Below, in pieces: positions 4,517-63,318 of a stretch of 64,000 nucleotides of DNA; positions within the stretch are counted from its first letter, which is position 1, and the number at the start of each line of letters is the position of its first letter. Source of the stretch: Kiritimatiellia bacterium (GTDB lineage Bacteria > Verrucomicrobiota > Kiritimatiellia > RFP12 > UBA3636); assembly GCA_017481725.1 (NCBI GenBank), contig JAFUOX010000061.1, positions 19,467-83,466 of the forward strand. Reading direction: 5' to 3'. The position numbers and the translations under genes were made by a program. The notes below the pieces were generated by a model. The model was not told the origin of the DNA and searched no databases. It saw only the letters and a list, made by a program, of their open reading frames with translations.

Positions 4517-6517
4517 TTATTGATTGCTATCTTGGTCAATAAATATTATTTCAGGATTGTTATTAAAGAAAAATTTTTTAATATTACCTTCAAACCTTCT
4601 GGGGATTGATATTTTCTTTAAATTATTGCAGTTTAAAAAAGCCCAATCAGCAATTTCTGTTACACTGTTTGGAATTTCGATTTCCGTTAAATTATTACAG
4701 TAATCAAATGTGCAATATTCAATTTTAGTTACACTATCAGGAATCTTGATGCTTTTTAGGCTTTTGCAGCAATAAAAAGCGCTACTACCAATAGAAGTTA
4801 CGCTATTAGGAATTTCAATGGCAGTTAAATTATCACAGCCAGCAAATGCGCTACTACCAATAGAAATTACGCTATTAGGAATTTTAATGGCAGTTAAATT
4901 ATCACAGCCAGCAAATGCACTATACCCAATAGAAGTTATACTATTAGGAATTTCAATGCTTTTCAGGTTGGTACAATTTTCAAAAGTACTTTTATCGATA
5001 GAAGTTAATCCATTAGGAAGCTTAATGCTTTCTAGGCTTGTGCAGTACGAAAATGCACTATCTTTTATATTTTTTACCTCACCTGTAAATTCAATAAATT
5101 TAAGATTTTCACAATTGCTGAATGCATAGCGATCAATGTATGTTATGTTTTCAGGAATTTTTATACTAGTTAAGCCATTACATCCAGAAAAAACAGAATT
5201 TCGAATAAGGCTTAGTTTATTAGAAAATTTTATGTCTTTTAAACTTTCGCAATGGAAAAATGCATATTGTCCTATGCTTATTATACTATCTGGCATCCCG
5301 ATGCTAATAATGCTCTTGCATCCAGAAAAAGCATAATCCTCTATGTCGGTAACACTGTTCGGTATTGCAATATTGGTTAGGTTGGTACAACAACTAAAGG
5401 CGGCTTCACCTATAATTTTTACTTTGTCGGGAATAGTAAATGTTTTTTTATCTGGAGCACACCAAAATATTTTTGTTTGATCTTTATTATACAAGGCTCC
5501 GTCACTAATAAGGTACTCCGTGTTGCCATCCTGAAGATTTATTTCCGTTAGTTTGTGGCAATTTTTAAAAGCGCCAAGACCAATATATGTTATGCTATTA
5601 GGAATATTGATATATGTTAAATTAGAACAACTCTCAAATGCTCTAGGTCCAATATGTATGAGACTGTTAGGAATATCTATTTTAGTTAAACTGCTACAGT
5701 TGTTAAATGCTTTTATACCAATATGTGTTAAGCTGTCAGGAAGCTTAATATCTATTAGGTTTCTACAAAATGAGAATGTGCTAGTGTTAATATGTGTGAT
5801 ACTATTGGGAAGAGTTATGCTGGTCAGATTGTCGCAACTTGCAAATGCACGTTTTTCTATATTAGTTACGCCATTAGGTATTTCAAGCTTCATTATGCTA
5901 TAACATTGAAAAAATGCAGCTTCTCCAATGTTTGCTAGTGTTTTAGGAAGAAGTATTTTTGATACATTATTGCATCCCCAAAATGTTTCCTTCCCTATAT
6001 GGGTTATTCCCTCGGGGATAGTGACTCTTTTTAATTCATGGCAATTATAAAATGTTTTATCTCCAATACGAGTGATTCCATTAGGTAAGTCAACTCTGAT
6101 TAAAATTCTGCAGTCATAAAATACACTTTCCCCCATATAAGTTACGCTGTCAGGTATTTCGATTGTTCTCAAGAGATGGCAGTATGAAAAAGCTTCATCC
6201 CCAATGTGAATTACGCCCTCAGGAATTTGGATGTGTGTTAGTTCTTTTTGCCAAGAGAAAGCTCTATCTTGTATTTTTACAACTTGTTTTCCTCCCAAAG
6301 TATTTGGGATAACAACTTTTCCAGCAAATTGTTCACCTCTAACAATTACGGCATTGTTATTAGAGTCAACTATGTAACTCCAAATATTACCATCTACCTC
6401 CTCCTTGCAAATGATTTTTGATGCATCTGTCTGCTCATTATTTTCTATAGAAGTTTCAATATTGCCGTATACATTAAAAATACAGCTAAAAATAAAAATA
6501 GATAGGATTTTTTTCAT
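4517..6517 (-). CDS. BspA-type leucine-rich-repeat surface protein (signal peptide MKKILSIFIFSCIFNVYG)
   Basis: about 22-aa repeats of the form IxIPxSVTxIGxxAFxxCxxL throughout. The ORF track starts at 6541, but MKKIL at 6517 is the more likely start (signal peptide). Confidence 0.8.
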   Translation of the reverse strand: MKKILSIFIFSCIFNVYGNIETSIENNEQTDASKIICKEEVDGNIWSYIVDSNNNAVIVRGEQFAGKVVIPNTLGGKQVVKIQDRAFSWQKELTHIQIPEGVIHIGDEAFSYCHLLRTIEIPDSVTYMGESVFYDCRILIRVDLPNGITRIGDKTFYNCHELKRVTIPEGITHIGKETFWGCNNVSKILLPKTLANIGEAAFFQCYSIMKLEIPNGVTNIEKRAFASCDNLTSITLPNSITHINTSTFSFCRNLIDIKLPDSLTHIGIKAFNNCSSLTKIDIPNSLIHIGPRAFESCSNLTYINIPNSITYIGLGAFKNCHKLTEINLQDGNTEYLISDGALYNKDQTKIFWCAPDKKTFTIPDKVKIIGEAAFSCCTNLTNIAIPNSVTDIEDYAFSGCKSIISIGMPDSIISIGQYAFFHCESLKDIKFSNKLSLIRNSVFSGCNGLTSIKIPENITYIDRYAFSNCENLKFIEFTGEVKNIKDSAFSYCTSLESIKLPNGLTSIDKSTFENCTNLKSIEIPNSITSIGYSAFAGCDNLTAIKIPNSVISIGSSAFAGCDNLTAIEIPNSVTSIGSSAFYCCKSLKSIKIPDSVTKIEYCTFDYCNNLTEIEIPNSVTEIADWAFLNCNNLKKISIPRRFEGNIKKFFFNNNPEIIFIDQDSNQ

Positions 6518-6909
6518 ATACATATATGTCCTTTGTAACATTATTATGAAAGAATTATAACACTTCTATTCCACAATCGTCAATTAAGTGTTAAAAATGG
6601 CATTTATAAATAAAAAAATGTTGCAAATTTTGTAGTTAAAATAATATGAATTCTATTACTCTTGCCTAGGATTTGGTTATGATATATTTATTTAGAACAT
6701 CATGCTAAGTTTTAAATCGTTTAGTGGTTTTGCAAAAAATTTAGCAGATTTTGCAAAAAATGCATAGTTGGTTTTTTGAATAAGTCGCTTGAAACTAAAG
6801 AGTTCTATAAAAGAGTTTTTTTCTACAGAATGAGTTAAAATATAATTGTCCCCTTGTAGAATTCCTATATTTATGCTTTAATTGTTGTGTTTTAGGATCA
6901 CAATATATA

Positions 6910-10619: not shown

Positions 10620-11966
10620 ATGAGTTGTGTAACAATAAATACAAATAAACTATTAGGCAAGATTAGGCTTATGAATTGTGTTAATAATGGGCCTGTTGGC
10701 TTGGCGGAAGACCCAGGACGAGGTAATTTTCAGACATATAAAAAGCTGAAAATACCATTTGCTCGCACACATGACTCAAACTTCTTTTCTGGCTATGGCG
10801 GACCTCATACTGTGGATGTAGGTGTAATCTTCCCTGATTTCGGAAAAGATGTGGATGACCCAGATGCTTATGATTTTCAGCTCACAGATGAGTATATTCA
10901 AAAAATAATAGCAGCAGGAACAGAGCCACTTTACAGACTTGGTGCGTCTATTGAGCATTGGTCTAAAAAATATCACACCCTGCCACCAAAGGATAATCAG
11001 AAGTGGGCAGAGGTTTGTGAGCATATCATTCGCCACTACACAGAGGGTTGGGCAAATGGATTTACCCATAAGATTAGATACTGGGAAATTTGGAATGAGC
11101 CAGATCTTGATGCAGAGGACTCAGATAATAAAAAATGCTGGGGTGGCACAAAGCTTCAATTTTTTGAGTTCTATAAGACGGTTGCTCTTCATTTAAAGAA
11201 ATGCTTTCCTCACTTGAAAATTGGAGGTCCCGCACTTGCATGGGATAAGGCTTGGCTTGATGATTTTCTAAAAATGATGTCTGGTGAGGGTTGTGAGGAA
11301 AAGCGTGTGCCGATAGATTTTATTTCTTGGCACAGGTATATGCGTAATCCATGGGATGTCCAAGAGGATGCAGATATTGTTGAAGCCATCATGAAGAAAT
11401 ATGGTTATGAAGCTGCGGAGAGCCATTTAAATGAATGGAATTATGTCCGTGGCTGGGCAACAGAGGCTTTTAATTATTCCATTGAAACAATAATTGGGAT
11501 GAAGGGAGCTGCCTTTACATTAGCAGCTATGATAGTTGGTCAGAATGTTAATAAGCTTGATATGATGATGTACTATGATGCACGTCCTACAGGAATGAAT
11601 GGGATTTGGGATCTCTATTTATATCGTCCGCTAAAGACATATTATAGCTTTGAAGCCTACAATAAGCTTGCGGAATATGGCACACAAATTGAAACTACAA
11701 CAGATGACAATGATGTGTATGTTTTGGGTGCACGTAGTGCAGACGGCAAGGTATGTACTGTATTTTCTCATTTTGTTGAAGAGGATACAAATGCACAACC
11801 AAAGACTGTTCGCATAAGCATTGATTCAGTAAATAGCAATCCTGTGAGCTATTTACTAGATGAAGCAAATAACCTTGCAGAGGTGCCTCTGTTAACTAAG
11901 TGTGGAGAAAATACATACGAGTTAACCCTGGCTCCAAATACAGTAGCAATGGTAGACTTTATCTAA
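10620..11966 (+). CDS. glycoside hydrolase (GH39/GH5-clan-like)
   Basis: 448 aa; RYWEIWNEPD motif typical of clan GH-A hydrolases; no signal peptide seen. Confidence 0.55.
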   Translation: MSCVTINTNKLLGKIRLMNCVNNGPVGLAEDPGRGNFQTYKKLKIPFARTHDSNFFSGYGGPHTVDVGVIFPDFGKDVDDPDAYDFQLTDEYIQKIIAAGTEPLYRLGASIEHWSKKYHTLPPKDNQKWAEVCEHIIRHYTEGWANGFTHKIRYWEIWNEPDLDAEDSDNKKCWGGTKLQFFEFYKTVALHLKKCFPHLKIGGPALAWDKAWLDDFLKMMSGEGCEEKRVPIDFISWHRYMRNPWDVQEDADIVEAIMKKYGYEAAESHLNEWNYVRGWATEAFNYSIETIIGMKGAAFTLAAMIVGQNVNKLDMMMYYDARPTGMNGIWDLYLYRPLKTYYSFEAYNKLAEYGTQIETTTDDNDVYVLGARSADGKVCTVFSHFVEEDTNAQPKTVRISIDSVNSNPVSYLLDEANNLAEVPLLTKCGENTYELTLAPNTVAMVDFI

Positions 11967-12700
11967 AACCCGCAGTAAGCAGCGCGAGCGTGATGGCTTG
12001 CGTGGTGGCTAAAAGTGCGAAGGGTAGGGACGCAGAGAGCGCAGAGGATGCTGGGGTGCGCTGAGCTCGTGTGGTGGCTTGTGTGGTGGTTCTGGGAGAT
12101 ACGCCAGCGCTTGTTGTTGGCTGTTGTTGCTCTCGTTGGAGCAGCACCAACTGCCAATCGCTGGTGTGTACGGCCCACAAGATCATTGAGTATGGGAGCG
12201 TACGTAAGCGTGATGCCTAAACGTCTAACGTCTCTCGTCATACGGGTCTCGTCTCTCGTCTCACGTCTCATGTCCCAGAGCGCGTGTCAACGCGTGGAGG
12301 GAGTTTAATGTCTATCTGTCTAATCGTCTGGCGGTGATTGTCTAAACGTCTTATCGTCTTTGGGTCGTACAACCGTCTAATTGTCTAATCGTCCCGGACG
12401 GAAGCGAAAGTGCGAAAATAAAATGTTTTAGCGCTTAGGGGACCTTGGGGACATAGGAGACCTTGGGGACAAATTTATTAAAGCGCTAGAAAATCTTGCT
12501 CTCTTGTCGCCAATGTTACCTATGTCCCCATTGTCTCCACCTAAAATAGAGAGCAAAGATGAAATTGTGCTACACATATTTCACATAAGTGTGATGCCTA
12601 AACGTGCGAAGGGAAGGGACGCACTTTTAGCCACAACGCAAGCCATCACGCTTGCCCCATTTGCCGTCAAAATGGGGCGCATTTGCTTTGCCTAATCACC
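11967..12700. repeat. GC-rich non-coding island carrying inverted and direct repeats (MITE-like element, copy 1)
   Basis: GC content far above flanks. 32-bp inverted repeat gcgtgatggcttgcgtKgtggctaaaagtgcg at ~11985 and ~12623. Core motif gtgcgaaggg(t/a)agggacgc at 12015 and 12604. CGTCT/TGTCTAA short-repeat clusters 12215-12395. gaccttggggaca x2 at 12441-12476. Confidence 0.55.
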
Positions 12701-12845
12701 GTACGAAAAAATAGAAGTTTAATTGAATAAAAGGTATTATTATTGTTGACATTGAGCAGTAAATTTAGTACTCTATACCAAGTTTTTTAACACGGAAAAG
12801 AATTTAGTTGTTCTATAGGAACTTATAGATAAGGGAATAATAAAC

Positions 12846-13004
12846 ATGAGCCAGCACAGCAGTCTAAAAGGATCAAGCAAAATTGTTATGCGTCGCAATG
12901 TTCTAAAGCGCCATGAGCGCGTTGAGCTAATGCGCAAGCGCGGTCAGTGGAAGGACGAGGAAGGCCGTGGCTACGGTCTCCCAAAGACTAAGCCTGAGGA
13001 ATAA
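12846..13004 (+). CDS. small basic hypothetical protein (52 aa)
   Basis: ATG at 12846, stop at 13002-13004; MSQHSSLKGSSKIVMRRNVLKRHERVELMRKRGQWKDEEGRGYGLPKTKPEE; not in the ORF track because shorter than 60 aa. Confidence 0.4.
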   Translation: MSQHSSLKGSSKIVMRRNVLKRHERVELMRKRGQWKDEEGRGYGLPKTKPEE

Positions 13005-27290: not shown

Positions 27291-27861
27291 CTAAAATCGG
27301 CTTTCTCTTTGCATTCCACTGGCGTCTCGTGTTTCGCGTGCAGGAAGGGTATGGAGAAGCGACTTCCAGTCGCTTTGCGTGCGGTAGCACGCTTCAAAAG
27401 TGCGAAAAAGGGACGCTGCGACGCGGAGGACGCAGCGTACGAGATTAGACGCGAGAATGTAGAAAAACCACTCAACTCTACCTAAATTCTTCATTCTTCA
27501 TTCTTCATTTATTATAATGGTGATGAAAAGCGAGAGGAAGCAAAGGGTTATCACCTTGCCACCTCTCGCCCCAGCAACACCGGGCGGCAGAGCCACCCTC
27601 TTCCCCACTGTCAAACTGTCAAACTCGCCCACTGTCAAACTGTCAAACTTTTCAATCCTTTTTTTAAAAATTCCTTGTGCATCACGCTCCGTATCTTAAT
27701 AAACTTCTGTGCGAGCACACTAGTGGATGAGTTTTGCCAAATTGCTTCGAAAGAATAGCAATAGCCAAGGCAAAGCTCATTCCGCTAGTGTTTTTTTTCT
27801 GCGTCCCTTCTTCGCACTTTTAGGCACCACGTGCACCACGCAGGCAGGAGCGCTAGCTTGA
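27291..27861. repeat. GC-rich non-coding island (MITE-like element, copy 2) with inverted core motifs and tandem heptamer/octamer repeats
   Basis: core gtgcgaaaaagggacgc at 27390-27406 and its inverse gcgtcccttcttcgcac at 27801-27817; ATTCTTC x3 at 27486-27508; CTGTCAAA x4 in two blocks at 27607-27648; palindrome gctgcgacgcggaggacgcagc at ~27404. Confidence 0.55.
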
Positions 27862-35546: not shown

Positions 35547-35574
35547 TTGCATATTTTTTAATATATTGTATAAT
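35547..35574 (+). promoter_or_regulatory. sigma70-like promoter (TTGCAT-16-TGnTATAAT) for the RhuM-like array
   Basis: TTGCAT at 35547, extended -10 tgTATAAT at 35567-35574; about 30 bp upstream of the AAGGAG RBS. Confidence 0.4.
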
Positions 35575-35606
35575 TATGGTGCTTTTATAAATCACAAGGA
35601 GTTGCT

Positions 35607-36476
35607 ATGGAACATAAAGAGAAGAAAAACGAAATTGTAATATATCAGCCCAATGAAACTATCCGCTTGGAGGTATGCTTAGAGAATGACACCGTGTGGC
35701 TGACGCAAACACAACTATGTAACTTGTTTGGTGTTGTTAAGTCAAATATTTCATCTATTCTTAAGAATATATTTGAAACTAATGAGTTGGATTCTTCGGC
35801 AATTGTTCAAAAAAATCGAACAGTTCAACAAGAGTCTGGACGTTTTGTCTCTCGCAATATTGAACGTTTTTCATGTGGATTTATGTTTGTCCTGTCAAAA
35901 GAAGAGTTGTGTGAACTGGTCACAAATTGTGACCGGTTTAAAAATTTAAAGCATTCCACGGTCTATCCAAAAGCATTCACAGAGCAAGGAGTTGCTATTA
36001 ATCATGAAGAGAAGAAAAACAAAATTGTAATATACCAGCCAGATGAAACTATACGGATAGAGGTTGTTCTTCAAAATGAAATAGTGTGGCTAAATCAGAT
36101 AAAGTTGTCTGCCTTATTTGATGTAGATAGAAGTGTTATAAATAGGCATATACGTAATATTTACAATAGTGGTGAACTGCATGAATCAGCAACTTGTGTA
36201 AAAATTGCACAAGTTCAAAATGAGGGAGCAAGAATAGTTTCCCGTGTAATTCCATTTTTTAATCTTGATGTTATAATAGCGGTTGGATATAGGGTAAATT
36301 CTGCAAGGGCAACACAATTTCGTATTTGGGCAACATCAGTTTTGAGAGAGCATTTGTTATGTGGTTACTCTTATAATATTCATCTAAAACATTTGGAAAA
36401 TAAAATGGATGAGAAATTTGCGGCTCACGATAAGGATATATCTTATCTCAAAGAAAAAGTAGATTTCTTTATATAA
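35607..36476 (+). CDS. RhuM-family (virulence protein RhuM N-terminal region) paralog 1 with a tandemly duplicated N-domain
   Basis: 289 aa; EIVIYQPNETIRLEV...TVWLTQ motif occurs twice (residues 1-60 and ~133-190); YNLD..(A/I)VGYRVNS..FR(I/R)WAT core; ends KEKVDFFI. Confidence 0.7.
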   Translation: MEHKEKKNEIVIYQPNETIRLEVCLENDTVWLTQTQLCNLFGVVKSNISSILKNIFETNELDSSAIVQKNRTVQQESGRFVSRNIERFSCGFMFVLSKEELCELVTNCDRFKNLKHSTVYPKAFTEQGVAINHEEKKNKIVIYQPDETIRIEVVLQNEIVWLNQIKLSALFDVDRSVINRHIRNIYNSGELHESATCVKIAQVQNEGARIVSRVIPFFNLDVIIAVGYRVNSARATQFRIWATSVLREHLLCGYSYNIHLKHLENKMDEKFAAHDKDISYLKEKVDFFI

Positions 36477-36558
36477 ACACAAACTGCACATATAGATGAA
36501 TTATTCACAAGGAGTTGCTATGAATCACGAAGAGAAGAAAAACGAAATTGTAATATAT
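36455..36558 (+). repeat. conserved cassette junction (3' KEKVDFF codons + taaacacaaactgcacatatagatgaattattcacaAGGAGttgctATGaatca + first ~12 codons), copy 1
   Basis: recurs at 37385-37465 and 37893-37998; partial copies at 35585-35650, 35985-36050 (in-frame, ATG to ATT) and 37795-37830. Confidence 0.8.
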
Positions 36559-37401
36559 CAGCCCAATGAAACTATCCGCTTGGAGGTTTGTCTTCGAGAT
36601 GAAACTGTATGGTTGAATCAAGAGCAAATAGCATCTTTGTTTGGAACTAAAAGACCAGCAATAACCAAACATCTAAAAAATATATACGAAAGCAGGGAAA
36701 TAGATAAGGATAGCACATGTTCCATTTTGGAACACATGGGAAATGCTGGAAAACAAACCTATCGTACATTATATTATAATTTGGATGCTATTCTTTCTGT
36801 TGGCTATAGAGTTAATAGTACAAATGCTACTAAATTTAGAAGATGGGCAACAGAGACATTAAAGGCATATCTACTAAAGGGTTATGTGATTAATACTCAT
36901 CTAAGTCATTTGGAAAATAAAATGGATGAGAAATTTGCGGCTCACGATAAGGATATATCCTATCTCAAAGAAAAAGTAGATTTCTTTGTGCAAACGCAGA
37001 CACCGCCACTCCAGGGCGTATTCTTTGAGGGACAGCTATGGGATGCGTGCTCGTTAGTGGAAAAGCTTATTGCACGAGCAAAAAGCTCAATTTTATTGAT
37101 TGATAATTGGGTTAGCGTAGAAACGCTTGATATGCTCGCAAAAAAGAATAGCGGGGTAGCAGTATCCATAGTTACCTCAAAAAGAGGAAACAAGCTTGCT
37201 CCCTCTGATATTGCTAAATTTAACGCCCAATATCCAATCTTAACGATTAAGGAGAGTGACGCTTTTCATGACCGCTTTCTAATTCTTGATGACAAAGAAA
37301 TATATCTTATCGGAGCATCGCTAAAGGATTTAGGAAAGAAATGCTTTGCCTTTACCAAAATGGATGTCAGTACAATATCTGACATAAAACTGCACATATA
37401 G
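36520..37401 (+). CDS. RhuM-family N-domain fused to a ~150-aa C-terminal domain (paralog 2)
   Basis: ITKHLKNIY, YYNLDAILSVGYRVNSTNATKFRRWAT. The start is moved to the ATG following the AAGGAG RBS; the ORF-track start at 36496 is an upstream in-frame ATG inside the conserved junction. Confidence 0.7.
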   Translation: MNHEEKKNEIVIYQPNETIRLEVCLRDETVWLNQEQIASLFGTKRPAITKHLKNIYESREIDKDSTCSILEHMGNAGKQTYRTLYYNLDAILSVGYRVNSTNATKFRRWATETLKAYLLKGYVINTHLSHLENKMDEKFAAHDKDISYLKEKVDFFVQTQTPPLQGVFFEGQLWDACSLVEKLIARAKSSILLIDNWVSVETLDMLAKKNSGVAVSIVTSKRGNKLAPSDIAKFNAQYPILTIKESDAFHDRFLILDDKEIYLIGASLKDLGKKCFAFTKMDVSTISDIKLHI

Positions 37402-37465
37402 ATGAATTATTCACAAGGAGTTGCTATGAATCATGAAGAGAAGAAAAACGAAATTGTAATATATC
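37385..37465 (+). repeat. conserved cassette junction, copy 2
   Basis: aaactgcacatatagatgaattattcacaaggagttgctatgaatcatgaagagaagaaaaacgaaattgtaatatatcagcc. Confidence 0.8.
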
Positions 37466-37809
37466 AGCCAGATGAAACTATACGAATAGAGGTTAGAGTA
37501 GCTAATGATACGGTTTGGCTTACGCAAAGCCAAATGAGTCTTTTATTTGGTTGCACTGTAAGAAATATTAGATTGCATTTAGAAAAGATATATTCGTGTG
37601 GGGCGTTGGAAACAGATTCAACTAAGAAGGATTTCTTCCTAGTTCGGTTTGAAGGAATAAGGGCAGTTAAAAGAAATATTACTTGTTATAACTTAGATGC
37701 TATTATTTCTGTTGGTTATCGTGTTAATTCTATTTTGGGTGTAAAATTCAGACGCTGGGCTACAGAGGTGTTGCGTAATTATCTTTTAATGAGTTGCTAT
37801 GAAACATAA
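37426..37809 (+). CDS. truncated RhuM-family N-domain paralog 3 (likely recombination remnant)
   Basis: 127 aa from the RBS-proximal ATG; the frame terminates inside a degenerate copy of the junction sequence (gagttgctatgaaacataa). Confidence 0.55.
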   Translation: MNHEEKKNEIVIYQPDETIRIEVRVANDTVWLTQSQMSLLFGCTVRNIRLHLEKIYSCGALETDSTKKDFFLVRFEGIRAVKRNITCYNLDAIISVGYRVNSILGVKFRRWATEVLRNYLLMSCYET

Positions 37810-37892
37810 AGAGAAGAAAAAAGCAATGTGCATTTTTTACACATTCCTTCTTCTGACAAACCTATGATAATCGTATAGAAACCCTTGAGGGG

Positions 37893-37998
37893 AAAGTAGA
37901 TTTCTTTATATAAACACAAACTGCACATATAGATGAATTATTCACAAGGAGAGTTGCTATGAATCATGAAGAGAAGAAAAACGAAATTGTAATATATC
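37893..37998 (+). repeat. conserved cassette junction, copy 3 (with AG insertion in the RBS region)
   Basis: gaaagtagatttctttatataaacacaaactgcacatatagatgaattattcacaaggagagttgctatgaatcatgaagag... Confidence 0.8.
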
Positions 37999-38867
37999 AG
38001 CCCAATGAAACGATACGAATAGAGGTTGTGCTTCAAAATGAAACAGTATGGCTAAATCGGAAACAGATGGCTGAGCTTTTTGGACGTAATGTTAAAACTA
38101 TAGGAAAACATATAAAAAATGCACTGTCTGAAGAGTTGTCTGAGTCATACAATATAGGGGATAGTACAAGCAACAGAAATCCAGTTGTCGCAAATTTTGC
38201 GACAACTGCCACTGACGGTAAAGTTTATAGTGTTGAGTATTATTCTCTTGATGTTGTTTTGTCTGTCGGGTATAGAGTTAAATCAACACAAGGGATTGCC
38301 TTTCGTAGATGGTCAAATGAGGTTTTGAAGTCTTTTTTGATTAATGGGTATATTTATGATTATAAATTTAGCCACTTAGAAGAGCGGATCGATAAACATT
38401 TAGCGGCTCACGATAAGGATATATCCTATCTCAAAGAAAAAGTAGATTTCTTTGTGCAAACTCAGACGCCACCACTCCAGGGCGTATTTTTTGAGGGGCA
38501 GTTATGGGATGCGTGCTCGCTTGTGGAAAAGCTTATTGCACGAGCAAAAAGTTCAATTTTATTGATTGATAGCTGGGTTAGCGTAGAAACACTTGATATG
38601 CTCGCAAAAAAGAATAGCGGGGTAGCAGTATCCATAGTTACCTCAAAGCACGGCAACAAGCTTGCTCCCTCCGATATTGCTAAATTTAATGCTCAATACC
38701 CAACATTAACGATTAAAGAGAGTGCCGCATTTCATGACAGATTCCTAATTCTTGATGACAAAGAAATATACCTTATCGGAGCATCGCTCAAGGATCTCGG
38801 AAAGAAATGCTTTGCCTTTACCAAAATGGATGCCAGTACAATTCCATCCATAAAAGCCCAGATTTAA
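37959..38867 (+). CDS. RhuM-family N-domain fused to a ~150-aa C-terminal domain (paralog 4)
   Basis: 302 aa; C-terminal 150 aa about 93% identical at nucleotide level to paralog 2 (38405-38867 vs 36950-37401). Confidence 0.7.
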   Translation: MNHEEKKNEIVIYQPNETIRIEVVLQNETVWLNRKQMAELFGRNVKTIGKHIKNALSEELSESYNIGDSTSNRNPVVANFATTATDGKVYSVEYYSLDVVLSVGYRVKSTQGIAFRRWSNEVLKSFLINGYIYDYKFSHLEERIDKHLAAHDKDISYLKEKVDFFVQTQTPPLQGVFFEGQLWDACSLVEKLIARAKSSILLIDSWVSVETLDMLAKKNSGVAVSIVTSKHGNKLAPSDIAKFNAQYPTLTIKESAAFHDRFLILDDKEIYLIGASLKDLGKKCFAFTKMDASTIPSIKAQI

Positions 38868-38965: not shown

Positions 38966-39042
38966 TGGTGGGCGAAGTCGGACTCGAACCAACGACAGGC
39001 TGGGTGTAAACCAGCTACTCTAACCAACTGAGTTACTCGCCC
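38966..39042 (-). tRNA. tRNA-Val (anticodon TAC), CCA encoded
   Basis: minus-strand sequence GGGCGAGTAACTCAGTTGGTTAGAGTAGCTGGTTTACACCCAGCCTGTCGTTGGTTCGAGTCCGACTTCGCCCACCA; cloverleaf with anticodon loop TTTACAC; GTTCGAGTC T-loop. Confidence 0.85.
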
Positions 39043-53669: not shown

Positions 53670-53728
53670 TTTAGTCGTTGGAATATAGAACTTATATCAC
53701 AAGCAACCCATAAGTTGGCATTTAAAAT

Positions 53729-53830
53729 AATTTCCCCTAATCGCCAAAATCAAGATTAGGGGAAATTTTTTTAAGCCATAAAAAATTTCCCCTAAATTTA
53801 AAAAACGGCTTTAGGGGAAATTTTATTGTT
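53729..53830. repeat. two tandem hairpins with identical 12-13-bp stems (AATTTCCCCTAA/TTAGGGGAAATT)
   Basis: hairpin 1 at 53729-53767 followed by a T-run; hairpin 2 at 53784-53822; located between the MTase and ATPase genes. Confidence 0.6.
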
Positions 53831-61633: not shown

Positions 61634-61780
61634 ACACTGTTTGTCTTGTGGAGAGATTTGACGCTAGAGCTTGCGTCCATTTGGATTCATGAACACCAAT
61701 GGGCATGCTATTGCACGCATGCCTATGGCGTGAACAAGTATGATGTGTGAGCTATCATGTGCACAACAAATCCATTCTTT

Positions 61781-61821
61781 CTATTTTAGAAAAATGTAAA
61801 AAAGTTAAAAATCTAAAATAG
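61781..61821. repeat. 41-bp palindromic repeat copy 1 (CTATTTTAG-N23-CTAAAATAG)
   Basis: ctattttagaaaaatgtaaaaaagttaaaaatctaaaatag. Confidence 0.75.
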
Positions 61822-61855
61822 GTTGTTGATTTTCTGCTTACAAAATGATACATTT

Positions 61856-61896
61856 CTATTTTAGAAAAACACAAAAAAGTTAAAAATCTAAAATAG
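61856..61896. repeat. 41-bp palindromic repeat copy 2, ending 8 bp before the ATPase start codon
   Basis: ctattttagaaaaacacaaaaaagttaaaaatctaaaatag. Confidence 0.75.
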
Positions 61897-61904
61897 AGAT
61901 ACCT

Positions 61905-63137: not shown

Positions 63138-63140
63138 AAT

Positions 63141-63181
63141 CTATTTTAGAAAAATGTAAAAAAGTTAAAAATCTAAAATAG
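63141..63181. repeat. 41-bp palindromic repeat copy 3, starting 4 bp after the ATPase stop codon
   Basis: ctattttagaaaaatgtaaaaaagttaaaaatctaaaatag, identical to copy 1. Confidence 0.75.
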
Positions 63182-63318
63182 GGAACATTTCTCCCCGTAG
63201 AACTTAGTACCCCACATTCGAGTATCCCTTAGCTTTCCTTTGAATATATATTTTTTGTGAGTCTGCAAAAGAAAAATGCAAATAACACATTTTTTATTGT
63301 AGAAAGAATAGCACTAGT

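Follow-up and report, generated by a model that had tools for sequence, protein, structure and literature searches.

A GTAG tetranucleotide 5' of the stem is a hallmark of REP elements, and REPIN-RAYT systems have, to our knowledge, mostly been described in phyla other than those of the hosts considered here. BOX elements of Streptococcus pneumoniae follow the scheme boxA-boxB(n)-boxC, with three fixed module types in fixed order, and we know of no transposase that acts on them. The inverse-core and core sites of integron attC read RYYYAAC and GTTRRRY. Small hairpin repeats nested in tandem arrays of the 7-nt class were reportedly described in Nostoc by Elhai et al. in 2008; PMC3116915 cites them as SDR. 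The 7-nt-class repeats of Nostoc and Xanthomonas (STRR, G-rich GGGNATC-type) are over-represented in non-coding DNA and vary in unit number; their G-rich heptamers prefer about four units, occur on the sense strand no further than about 50 bp from stop codons and are for the most part transcribed (PMC4692102). In REPIN clusters, new units insert into or beside existing units (PMC3116915), and the BrickBuilt elements of Porphyromonas gingivalis are MITEs carrying an internal minisatellite (PMC5771137).

Here, we focus on a stretch of 64,000 nucleotides from a Kiritimatiellia bacterium (the window), in which the spacer between a GH39 gene and a gene for a small basic protein (sbp) holds an island of repeats at 11984-12655 (island 1; Table 1). 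The 730 bp flagged by the original prediction are non-coding and pieced together from small repeat modules that form hairpins and from short tandem arrays. This is probably a compound island of DNA repeats, a mosaic like the BIMEs of E. coli or the pneumococcal BOX elements. Every sequence feature that had been named was found in its place. The GC content is elevated (0.51, compared with 0.40 for the whole window), although "markedly GC-rich" is somewhat generous, and no convincing ORF is present, since the ORFs of island 1 overlap on both strands and match no Pfam family. Islands of this kind give rise to spurious ORFs of 60-100 aa. A comparison with Rfam, which had been proposed as a check, shows that no known RNA family accounts for island 1: at gathering score the sole match in the whole window is a tRNA at 38969 and the islands of 18 related loci give zero matches, while a search of 11800-12900 with E up to 10 returned nothing relevant on island 1 and no match better than E = 3. 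Neither Rfam nor the searchable literature contains the family; work on repeats in Kiritimatiellia or Verrucomicrobia and queries with the sequence strings yielded nothing about it. It is apparently an undescribed, many-copy repeat family of gut Kiritimatiellia.

Table 1. Features of island 1 and of the sister island (island 2) in the window; L numbers denote compared loci.
Feature	Position	Strand	Basis or occurrence
Left arm X of outer palindrome	11984..12019	+	inverted repeat; in orthologues L043, L093, L091
Two 12-nt units GCGTGRTGGCTT in arm X, then CTAAAAGTGCG	11988-12010	+	TRF period 12
Module A, ~225 nt: core, hairpins, X-like end	12000..12224	+	dispersed copies
Core copy 1, GTGCGAAGGGTAGGGACGC	12015..12033	+	family-wide break point just after GGGACGC(A)
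Small hairpin AGCGCA...TGCGCT, module A	12038..12062	+	local fold; conserved in module A alignment
Internal pair of 12-nt X-like units (GCTCGTGTGGTG period), module A	12065..12091	+	TRF, pattern matches
Long hairpin, module A, ACGCCAGCGCTTG...CAATCGCTGGTGT, variable apex	12099..12169	+	fold -39.7 kcal/mol
Hairpin GTACG...CGTAC, 3' part of module A	12168..12203	+	local fold; conserved in module A alignment
X-like unit GCGTGATGCCTAAAC at A/B junction	12208..12222	+	unit also precedes module B in L018, L071
7-nt tandem array CGTCTCN, 7.7 copies, start of module B	12221..12274	+	TRF
Small hairpin CGCGTG-TCAA-CGCGTG between the two arrays of module B	12280..12295	+	local fold
8-nt tandem array GTCTAANN x ~9, interrupted, second half of module B	12310..12395	+	TRF
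Module C left hairpin: AGCGCT stem, four 9-nt units GGRGACNTW (12436-12471) inside	12426..12490	+	repeats, fold
Module C right hairpin: TTGCTCTCT...AGAGAGCAA stem, four 9-nt units TGTYNCCNN (12504-12538) inside	12494..12559	+	repeats, fold
Hairpin unit D: GTGATGCCTAAAC-GTGCG-AAGGGAAGGGA-CGCAC-TTTTAGCCAC	12589..12637	+	fold; includes core copy 2 (12604-12622)
Right arm X' of outer palindrome	12620..12655	+	conserved in L093, L090, L094, L091
Hairpin CCCCATTT-GCCGTCA-AAATGGGG, T-rich tail, terminator-like	12653..12690	+	terminator scan, fold
Sister island, between convergent Rex-like and ABC-transporter genes	27376..27860		
Core variant GTGCGAAAAAGGGACGC, shorter, sister island	27400-27416	+	
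Core variant GTGCGAAGAAGGGACGC, shorter, sister island	27801-27817	-	
Tandem array TTCATTC, sister island	27486-27509		
Tandem array CTGTCAAA, sister island	27604-27649		
Long hairpin module, sister island	27678-27796		

The seed of the island is a palindrome that follows the GH39 stop codon at a distance of about 20 nt. Its X and X' arms, made of 12-nt GTGRTGGCT units, enclose the hairpin GTGCG-AAGGGWAGGGA-CGCAC, and in island 1 the arms (36 nt, 94% complementary) are the inverted repeat noted near both ends, with 600 nt between them. The 19-nt core, GTGCGAAGGG[T/A]AGGGACGC, occurs in two direct copies on the plus strand (12015-12033 and 12604-12622), 589 nt apart; a 22-nt version gives 2 matches, compared with 0.00 expected in shuffles. 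GTAG stands at the 5' foot of the hairpin in core copy 1 (GGGTAGGGA) and not in copy 2. Most Kiritimatiellia cores likewise lack it and read GAAGGGA or AAAGGGA, GTAG being found in a minority. Among 80+ copies of the family, the sequence to the left of the core hardly varies, while that to its right can be sorted into at least 8 classes beginning directly after GGGACGC(A).

The space between the arms is occupied by several modules, A, B, C and D, that are dispersed separately and each consist of hairpins and degenerate tandem arrays of 7-12 nt. The coverage of island 1 by matches from other loci changes in steps at the module borders. Module A stands beside a core at about 16-20 genomic sites (71-93% identity), and its 12-nt X-like units vary in number, with 1-3 extra in L028, L084 and L059. 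Module B, also present in L018, L071 and L094, accounts for the short-repeat clusters reported at 12215-12395, which are indeed a 7-nt and an 8-nt tandem array; the latter is bounded by TRF at 12374-12393 and reaches further only by eye. In module C, the array of the right hairpin is the inverse of that of the left (12438-12470 according to TRF), which also contains the doubled motif, GACCTTGGGGACA, at 12441 and 12459. The left hairpin recurs in L006/L093, L090, L094 and L071, the right one in L043, L093, L090 and L094, and in L093 the module C units form four GGGG tracts with 5-nt loops. A 40-nt piece of unit D is cleanly missing from L094, which is otherwise near-identical. The terminator-like hairpin at the right end is outside the repeat family, yet it is found in all orthologues that have X'. 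Longer runs of modules recur as well: a 474-nt stretch comprising A, B and half of C is present with 90% identity at an unrelated locus of the genome RGIG990 (L071), upstream of a gene that we take, from reading its sequence, to be mannonate-dehydratase-like, and the GH39-sbp site of RGIG990 itself has the bare palindrome only.

Orthologous GH39-sbp spacers show the same site in several states. The spacer of L092 is empty, has the same sbp promoter as the window and is not alignable with the filled sites; L091 has a contiguous palindrome of ~55 nt alone; and L043, L093, L090 and L094 contain different mosaics of the same modules. A precise filled/empty pair for the whole of island 1 was not found among the compared spacers, and the only full-length match is that of L088, at the same locus, with single modules or partial runs elsewhere. 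These observations bear on the proposal that the 730 bp are one classical MITE, that is, a single DDE-transposase insertion with 36-nt terminal inverted repeats whose interior diverged later. The inverted repeat at the ends, the length of about 670 bp, the lack of an ORF, the multi-copy family and the inverted cores at both ends of island 2 would all suit such an element. However, the flanks, GTAAGCAGC on the left and CCCATTTGC on the right, have no target-site duplication in common, no second full-length copy exists elsewhere, the interior being a mosaic of dispersed modules, which alone recur, and the interiors differ completely between orthologues with a flanking gene that is 94-97% identical. 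The supposed terminal inverted repeats are really the two arms of a palindrome that stands alone and contiguous in L091, and the core loop at the right end is direct instead of inverted, so that the loop of unit D is flipped compared with that of a true terminal inverted repeat. Moreover, no IS with X-core ends was found in the window and about 100 loci; the only IS nearby belongs to the ISKra4 family (L087, L090) and its ends are unrelated to island 1. The interpretation as one MITE is largely refuted and we consider it very unlikely.

Module A is inverted and located at the opposite (right) arm in L090 and L093. Together with 36-nt inverted repeats that enclose 600 bp immediately before the sbp promoter region, this might suggest an invertible, phase-variable switch operated by a site-specific recombinase. 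Module C, in contrast, keeps its orientation in L090 and L093, and thus the differences are not a simple flip; the orthologues differ by module shuffling. A promoter consensus scan gave nothing inside island 1 and two matches at 12736-12866, no recombinase gene adjoins the island, and island 2 is located between two convergent 3' ends with nothing there to drive. A switch is therefore hardly credible. Separately, in L094 a different upstream gene seems to be joined to the island, with the junction inside module A, and at least one island appears to have been used as a crossover point.

The core motif reappears, as the original prediction had it, in a second island, where it takes the form of shorter variants that are inverted and about 400 nt apart. 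Within the window the family is restricted to islands 1 and 2, which also contain four of the five tandem arrays with a period of 7-9 nt and at least three copies. The right end of island 2 has a 22-nt match to the left end of island 1, its modules are found within the island-1 orthologue L043, and no target-site duplication was seen at island 2. Strain variants of island 2 (L099-L102) within one species differ almost exclusively in array copy number: between strains with an identical Rex-like protein, the island differs only by a few point substitutions and four length changes, of +2, +1 and about +4-5 units in three arrays and one 9-bp indel. The arrays had been called iteron-like. They are tandem repeats of short period, found in other islands too and varying between strains at the sister island, without a tie to replication. 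Clustered sites for a DNA-binding protein, either replicon iterons or sites for a regulator or nucleoid protein, would suit the ~20-fold, strongly strand-asymmetric enrichment of GRGAC/GTCYC in island 1 (GTCT n=15 and AGAC n=1 on the plus strand) and the identical unit number in the window, L071 and L018. Against this, the 7-9 nt periods do not keep phase with the DNA helix, unit sequences vary among islands and genomes (TTCATTC, CTGTCAAA, GACGC and others), copy number differs between strains, and the setting is chromosomal and housekeeping with no replication genes nearby. We regard such a function of the arrays as highly improbable.

Beyond the window, a scan of a genome collection matched at least 86 stretches. 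At least 45 copies of the core occur in three related Kiritimatiellia gut MAGs of ~40% GC, and a GTAG-plus-hairpin form occurs in at least 31 copies in two very distant MAGs of ~50% GC. In the latter, every core copy has GTAG immediately 5' of the stem, in the form GTAG-GGACGCAC-CGA-GTGCGTCC. All cores listed are intergenic. Unrelated genomes gave singleton chance matches only, and in JGI metagenome contigs the Kiritimatiellia-specific pattern had 0 matches and the general pattern 44 singletons, none with family features; one match in a viral contig (n=1) was a chance match within coding sequence of 60% GC. Confinement of the motif to two places, which the original prediction had named as speaking against a repeat family, does not hold, and island 1 belongs to a dispersed family with dozens of copies in related genomes.

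Among the matches listed, the core is downstream of a co-oriented gene in 45 of 70. It follows a co-oriented stop codon in 25 of the 41 listed for Kiritimatiellia and in 20 of the 29 listed for the ~50% GC MAGs, 18 of these 20 at 36-115 nt. In the window, the three outer cores of four face away from the stop codon of the adjacent gene, at 49, 110 and 45 nt, and the fourth (12604) is inside island 1. Island 1 also folds far better than its shuffles, with z = -8.3 and -7.5 on the two strands, the minus strand folding almost as well. For the long hairpin of module A, which was read from the alignment by eye and is not the RNAalifold consensus (the latter is poor, with a covariation term of -0.34), 89% of cells are paired over 16 copies, compared with 22-40% in slid controls. 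Seven pairs have changes on both sides, and the 23 cells with changes on both sides exceed the 8.8 in shuffles, the observed value being reached in 0/500 shuffles. This hairpin is kept by compensatory changes. Its wobble and mismatch positions are few and favour no strand. Compensatory change in palindromes can, however, come from intrastrand templated repair without selection.

The downstream bias and the compensatory changes would fit a function in RNA too. X-core and the modules might act as 3' untranslated region elements of the upstream gene, as stabilising or terminating hairpins, as pyrimidine-rich arrays that load Rho or as a platform for an RNA-binding protein, with dispersal being secondary. 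The strong folding, the change from G-rich to C-rich, G-poor stretches along the sense strand and the orientation of the outer window cores are consistent with this, as are the transcribed G-rich heptamers near stop codons in Xanthomonas and Nostoc (PMC4692102). On the other hand, module A occurs in both orientations at one site (the window versus L090 and L093), a third of the listed cores are not downstream of a co-oriented gene, the L092 site is empty despite the same sbp promoter, neither strand is favoured by folding or by wobbles and mismatches, and the regularity in distance could stem from an element that fills a short spacer. Judged from sequence, such a primary role in RNA is rather unlikely, and it could hold alongside the DNA-repeat reading, as for REP.

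Three further candidates were considered and rejected. A hammerhead ribozyme in the module ACTGATGGTCGC...GGCGAAACACGG that follows some cores was dismissed: an intact CUGAUGA core is lacking, and L015 has no Rfam match. A sigma-54 promoter (TGGC-N-GC in GGCTAAAAGTGCG) has a spacing 2 nt too short. A CsrA-type sponge RNA with GGA in hairpin loops is contradicted by the much too high copy number, by the occurrence of both orientations and by the lack of such loops in the ~50% GC form.

The islands, understood as mosaics of DNA repeats, may have grown as new modules joined the conserved core, in every case immediately 3' of GGGACGC, through site-directed insertion or else through recombination or gene conversion among the many dispersed cores. 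Modules would subsequently be inverted, lost or swapped between islands, and arrays would grow and shrink by slippage. Most likely, the elements are selfish or neutral DNA whose presence downstream of genes is tolerated. An enzyme with an affinity for single-stranded hairpins may mobilise them in trans, as the analogy with REP and the ends of IS200/IS605 suggests. No enzyme of this kind, and neither an autonomous partner nor a Y1 transposase linked to the core, was found in the about 0.7 Mb sampled (the window and about 100 loci). In the same partial sample of the genomes, tblastn of low sensitivity with E. coli RayT and an approximate IS608 TnpA sequence as queries gave nothing below E = 0.2, and clustering of 424 ORFs from the loci revealed no multi-copy protein family near cores.

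A bolder possibility, which we regard as unlikely, is that the ~20-nt core, AAAGTGCGAA-N2-4-AGGGACGC, with purine-rich and pyrimidine-rich arrays on opposite sides, is a functional, sense-oriented module of gene 3' ends that, acting in RNA or single-stranded DNA, docks a conserved protein. Gut Kiritimatiellia would have it in common, probably through horizontal spread, with the very distant ~50% GC lineage, whose proteins that we presume from their sequence to be FtsA- and FtsZ-like are only 22% identical to those of the window. If true, this would be a cross-phylum system of cis elements without a described counterpart, beyond selfish DNA. Irrespective of function, several per cent of the intergenic DNA of these uncultured gut Kiritimatiellia may belong to the family. 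Assemblies are likely to break at the islands and binning to be confused by them. Since strains of one species differ in the tandem arrays, these could be used as natural strain markers. Furthermore, the core shared with a very distant lineage as a GTAG hairpin points to a possible REP-like system outside the phyla known for such systems.

Among described systems, integrons resemble the islands in having imperfect palindromes at module borders, where GCCTAAAC and GTTTAGGC resemble RYYYAAC/GTTRRRY with one extra base. The spacing of these core-site look-alikes is, however, off by one base, no integrase is nearby, and the "cassettes" are without ORFs; their dispersal over dozens of intergenic sites instead of one array, in both orientations, argues against an attC/cassette array. 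Like MITEs, the islands are non-coding and below 1 kb in length, end in inverted repeats, have dispersed copies and contain tandem repeats whose number varies, but they lack a target-site duplication and full-length copies elsewhere, no cognate IS was found in the window and about 100 loci, and their ends are the arms of a pre-existing palindrome. The four GGGGAC-type units of module C recall the heptamers of Nostoc and Xanthomonas, whereas the islands combine units of 7, 8, 9 and 12 nt, a 19-nt core and long hairpins in larger dispersed modules. BOX elements are likewise modular, non-coding, intergenic and multi-copy, with strong predicted structure and variable unit number; the islands differ in having many module types in free order and orientation, nucleation by a palindrome and short-period arrays inside modules. 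REP, BIME and REPIN elements are short imperfect palindromes with many intergenic copies, mostly downstream of genes, whose clusters mix further conserved motifs with palindromic units of either orientation, as the islands do. Unit D, whose core has at least 45 copies in three related MAGs, is a short, highly repeated, extragenic imperfect palindrome in the sense of REP. The ~50% GC form has the GTAG of REP immediately 5' of the stem, and only a minority of the Kiritimatiellia cores have it. The window cores do not form the closely spaced inverted doublets of REPINs, and the island modules, of 40-225 nt, are much larger than REP and made of degenerate 7-12-nt tandem arrays. On the best reading, the islands behave in the manner of REP/BIME, the intergenic repeat mosaics of E. 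coli, and not like one simple miniature transposon.

Island 1 (window 11984-12655) occupies the spacer that separates a GH39-family glycoside hydrolase gene from the small basic protein gene sbp, and its flanking genes share 90-97% identity with three gut Kiritimatiellia MAGs. One metagenome contig (L088) is identical to the window across the entire locus. The original prediction had described a MITE-like element of about 730 bp, and every sequence feature it named is present. The arms of the inverted repeat are 36 nt long and 94% complementary, the core GTGCGAAGGG[T/A]AGGGACGC occurs in two direct copies where chance predicts none, and the short repeat clusters are tandem arrays of period 7, 8 and 9. 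There is no convincing ORF (the sole ORFs overlap on both strands, without Pfam match), and an Rfam search gave no match at E values up to 10. The GC content is 0.51 versus 0.40 for the window, and each strand folds much more strongly than its shuffled versions (z = -8.3 and -7.5). The core recurs in the sister island 2 as shorter variants, one per end and mutually inverted, together with separate 7- and 8-nt arrays.

Features of the islands and other repeats in the window
Feature	Position	Strand	Remark
69-nt tandem repeat	4775-4958		2.7 copies, 91% match
674-aa ORF	4517-6541	-
GH39-family gene	10620-11966	+	Pfam PF01229
Outer arms of island 1	11984-12019; 12620-12655
Module A	12000-12224
Core copies of island 1	12015-12033; 12604-12622
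Module A long hairpin	12099-12169
Period-7 tandem array	12221-12274
Period-8 tandem array	12310-12395
Period-9 tandem array	12436-12471
Inverse 9-nt array	12504-12538
sbp, 52 aa	12846-13004	+	TIGR04137
Island 2	27376-27860
Four tandem paralogous genes	35568-38537		289, 301, 135, 302 aa
tRNA	38969-39042	-
Two adjacent hairpins	53722-53827
43-nt palindrome	61780-61822; 61855-61897; 63140-63182		91-100% identical

We scanned the pattern AAMGTGCGAA-N2-4-AGGGACGC over one genome per species and obtained at least 86 stretches. Among the matches listed, five MAGs contain many cores each, unrelated genomes contain single chance matches, and the cores are intergenic without exception, in every gene configuration. 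Three ~40% GC Kiritimatiellia MAGs hold at least 20 (JAZNPC01), 17 (JAFPBK01) and 5 (CALDQE01) cores, with at least three further cores in two loci placed in this group by similarity. Two ~50% GC MAGs hold at least 16 (CAVKTI01) and 12 (CAVBBP01), plus at least three further. From these five MAGs 13, 17, 4, 14 and 12 loci were sampled, respectively. The JGI metagenome collection yielded unrelated singletons only and the viral collection one match, by chance. Given the cores in five MAGs, the motif is not confined to the two islands, and island 1 belongs to a large repeat family, as had been proposed. At L001 (5551-5574) and L021 (2313-2336), 3 nt separate the end of the upstream ORF from the core, so that the ORF's TAA stop is the TAA of the element's TAAAAGTGCG and seems to be provided by the repeat. 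Two TPP riboswitch aptamers in tandem (L038 from JAZNPC01, 5273-5379 and 5428-5532, minus strand) directly adjoin a repeat island with cores at 5611 and 5947.

Matches from other loci cover island 1 stepwise. Module A is found at ~16-20 different sites, and modules B (the 7- and 8-nt arrays) and C (two hairpins with 9-nt arrays as loops) are also found in L018, L071, L006 and others. L071 (JAFPBK01) matches island 1 colinearly over 474 nt (A and B plus half of C; 90% identity) upstream of an unrelated gene, while the island 1 orthologue L043 (JAZNPC01) contains island 2 modules. Across more than 80 family copies, nearly all cores have GTGRTGGCTAAAA on their left; the right flanks form at least eight classes starting immediately 3' of GGGACGC(A). 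That island 1 is a mosaic repeat island and not one element is solid. Specific tests contradicted a single classical MITE, with no target-site duplication and no full copies found, as well as the iteron-like reading that had been offered for the arrays and an invertible switch. The counterparts of the period-9 array in L093 (2479-2546) and L006 (2935-3000) have four perfect GGGG tracts with 5-nt loops between them, a textbook quadruplex motif; in the window copy one tract has decayed to GGAG.

Ten loci obtained by exact look-up of the small basic protein allow the orthologous site to be compared. L087, L090, L092, L094, L095 and L096 belong to the same species as the window because they are 98.8-99.0% identical to it over the 3 kb downstream of sbp; same-site loci diverge upstream of the sbp promoter. 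L092 keeps a GH39 gene (90% identity), and its AT-rich 243-bp spacer has no trace of the repeat family. The spacer of L091 (JAFPBK01) contains GCGAGTGTGATGGCTCGCGTGATGGCTA-GCGCAC-TTTTAGCCATCACGCTTGC only, a small palindrome equal to the window's two 'terminal repeat' arms joined. L093/L006 and L043 share the outer arms but differ in modules. Module A is inverted against the right arm in L090 and L093, with module C unchanged in orientation. In L094, which has a different upstream gene (cellulase), module A is present as a variant with 81% identity and is followed by B and C nearly identical to the window, and 40 nt are cleanly absent from hairpin unit D; its sequence may be read as a crossover between two islands within module A. 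Thus, the arms are retained while the sequence between them is replaced, and the islands seem to serve as substrates for recombination.

Some strains carry an ISKra4-family IS (L087 1126-2878; L090 from 1115) that separates the island from the sbp promoter, inserted at about window 12719-12726, with a transposase split into ORFs of 213 and 208 aa, ends GGGTGCAAAGAGTTTTTTATGCA and flanking duplicated TTAATTGA. Upstream of window ~12715-12735 (TTAATTGAATAAAAGG) the genes vary among the six same-species contigs (GH39, cellulase, peptidase M50, others), which therefore marks a within-species synteny breakpoint.

In an alignment of 16 module A copies from different sites, the long hairpin read from the sequences is 89% paired (slid controls 22-40%), and seven pairs are changed on both sides. 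Cells with both-side changes number 23, versus 8.8 in shuffles, and none of 500 shuffles reaches 23. The apex is swapped for different small hairpins among copies. Judged from these copies, hairpin structure is maintained in module A. Four contigs with an identical Rex-like protein gene adjoining island 2 represent two types, which show a few point substitutions and otherwise only length differences: TTCATTC (+2 units), CTGTCAAA (+1 unit), the GACGC array beside the core (+39 bp, 4-5 units) and one 9-bp indel. The arrays behave as variable-number repeats. Module B has equal unit numbers between species, and hence array change is episodic and not hypermutable.

The comparisons establish module dispersal, empty-to-full site polymorphism, module inversion and exchange, array slippage and hairpin conservation. 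Island 1 may have originated as an X-core-X' palindrome (the two outer arms around a core) downstream of a gene, with modules then joined on at the 3' edge of the core, either by an enzyme recognising the hairpin in single-stranded DNA or by gene conversion among the many cores. Y1 transposases recognise such single-stranded hairpins at IS200/IS605 ends and REPs. An enzyme step is a guess that we consider rather unlikely; neither a Y1 transposase in ~0.7 Mb of sampled loci nor a multi-copy protein near cores was found. The main rival, possibly valid alongside a DNA repeat, is an RNA role of cores or modules in 3' untranslated regions. Among the matches listed, 45 of 70 cores lie 3' of a co-oriented stop codon, and 18 of the 20 co-oriented cores in the ~50% GC MAGs are 36-115 nt from the stop; three of the window's four cores fit this rule. 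However, both orientations of module A are found at a single site, this site can also lack the island entirely, and the regular distance could simply result from an element filling a short spacer.

In the ~50% GC MAGs, the core takes the form GTGCGAA[A/T]GTAGGGACGCAC-CGA-GTGCGTCC, a stem-loop preceded by GTAG, with C-poor 7-8-nt arrays on its 5' side (GTAGCAA, AATTAGG, AGTNTGAA) and G-poor arrays on its 3' side (CAACGCTT, AATCAACC, GAAATCT). One entire spacer folds into one long, imperfect hairpin whose tip is formed by the core (z = -2.7). CAVKTI01 and CAVBBP01, labelled Acutalibacteraceae and Segatella copri, have in common syntenic orthologues (47-70% identity) and near-identical repeat elements (e.g. 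L017/L019, L057/L076), so that at least one label is doubtful and looks wrong. Their proteins that we take, by sequence reading, to be FtsA-like and FtsZ-like share only 22% identity with the window's, and the core would therefore be common to both sides of a very deep split. A Flavobacteriales MAG (L063) has a single similar core copy. A functional role of the cross-phylum core, if demonstrated, would make the family more interesting.

The window holds further repeats. The 43-nt AT-rich palindrome TCTATTTTAGAAAAATGTAAAAAAGTTAAAAATCTAAAATAGG, present in three copies, is a small intergenic hairpin repeat distinct from the island family. The four tandem paralogues, in a 33% GC stretch adjoining the tRNA, repeat segments of 164-300 nt and conserve the start region; the 69-nt tandem repeat lies in a 30% GC region within the 674-aa ORF. 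Two similar hairpins side by side between ORFs (TTTCCCCTAATC...GATTAGGGGAAA, then a T run) are probably intrinsic terminators.

No description of the repeat family was found in Rfam or the searchable literature. Island 1 differs from MITEs in the missing duplication and full copies. BrickBuilt MITEs of Porphyromonas gingivalis reportedly contain an internal minisatellite. Island 1 also recalls these composite elements (annotated in PMC5771137), and its arrays are reminiscent of G-rich heptamer repeats in Xanthomonas and Nostoc, which prefer four units and are located, on the sense strand, close to stop codons (PMC4692102). Membership in REP/REPIN is unproven: GTAG is only partly conserved in the family, core doublets are absent and RAYT was not found in the ~0.7 Mb sampled. 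In its working, island 1 comes closest to REP/BIME clusters, in which insertion of new units takes place within or alongside older ones (PMC3116915), and to BOX elements.
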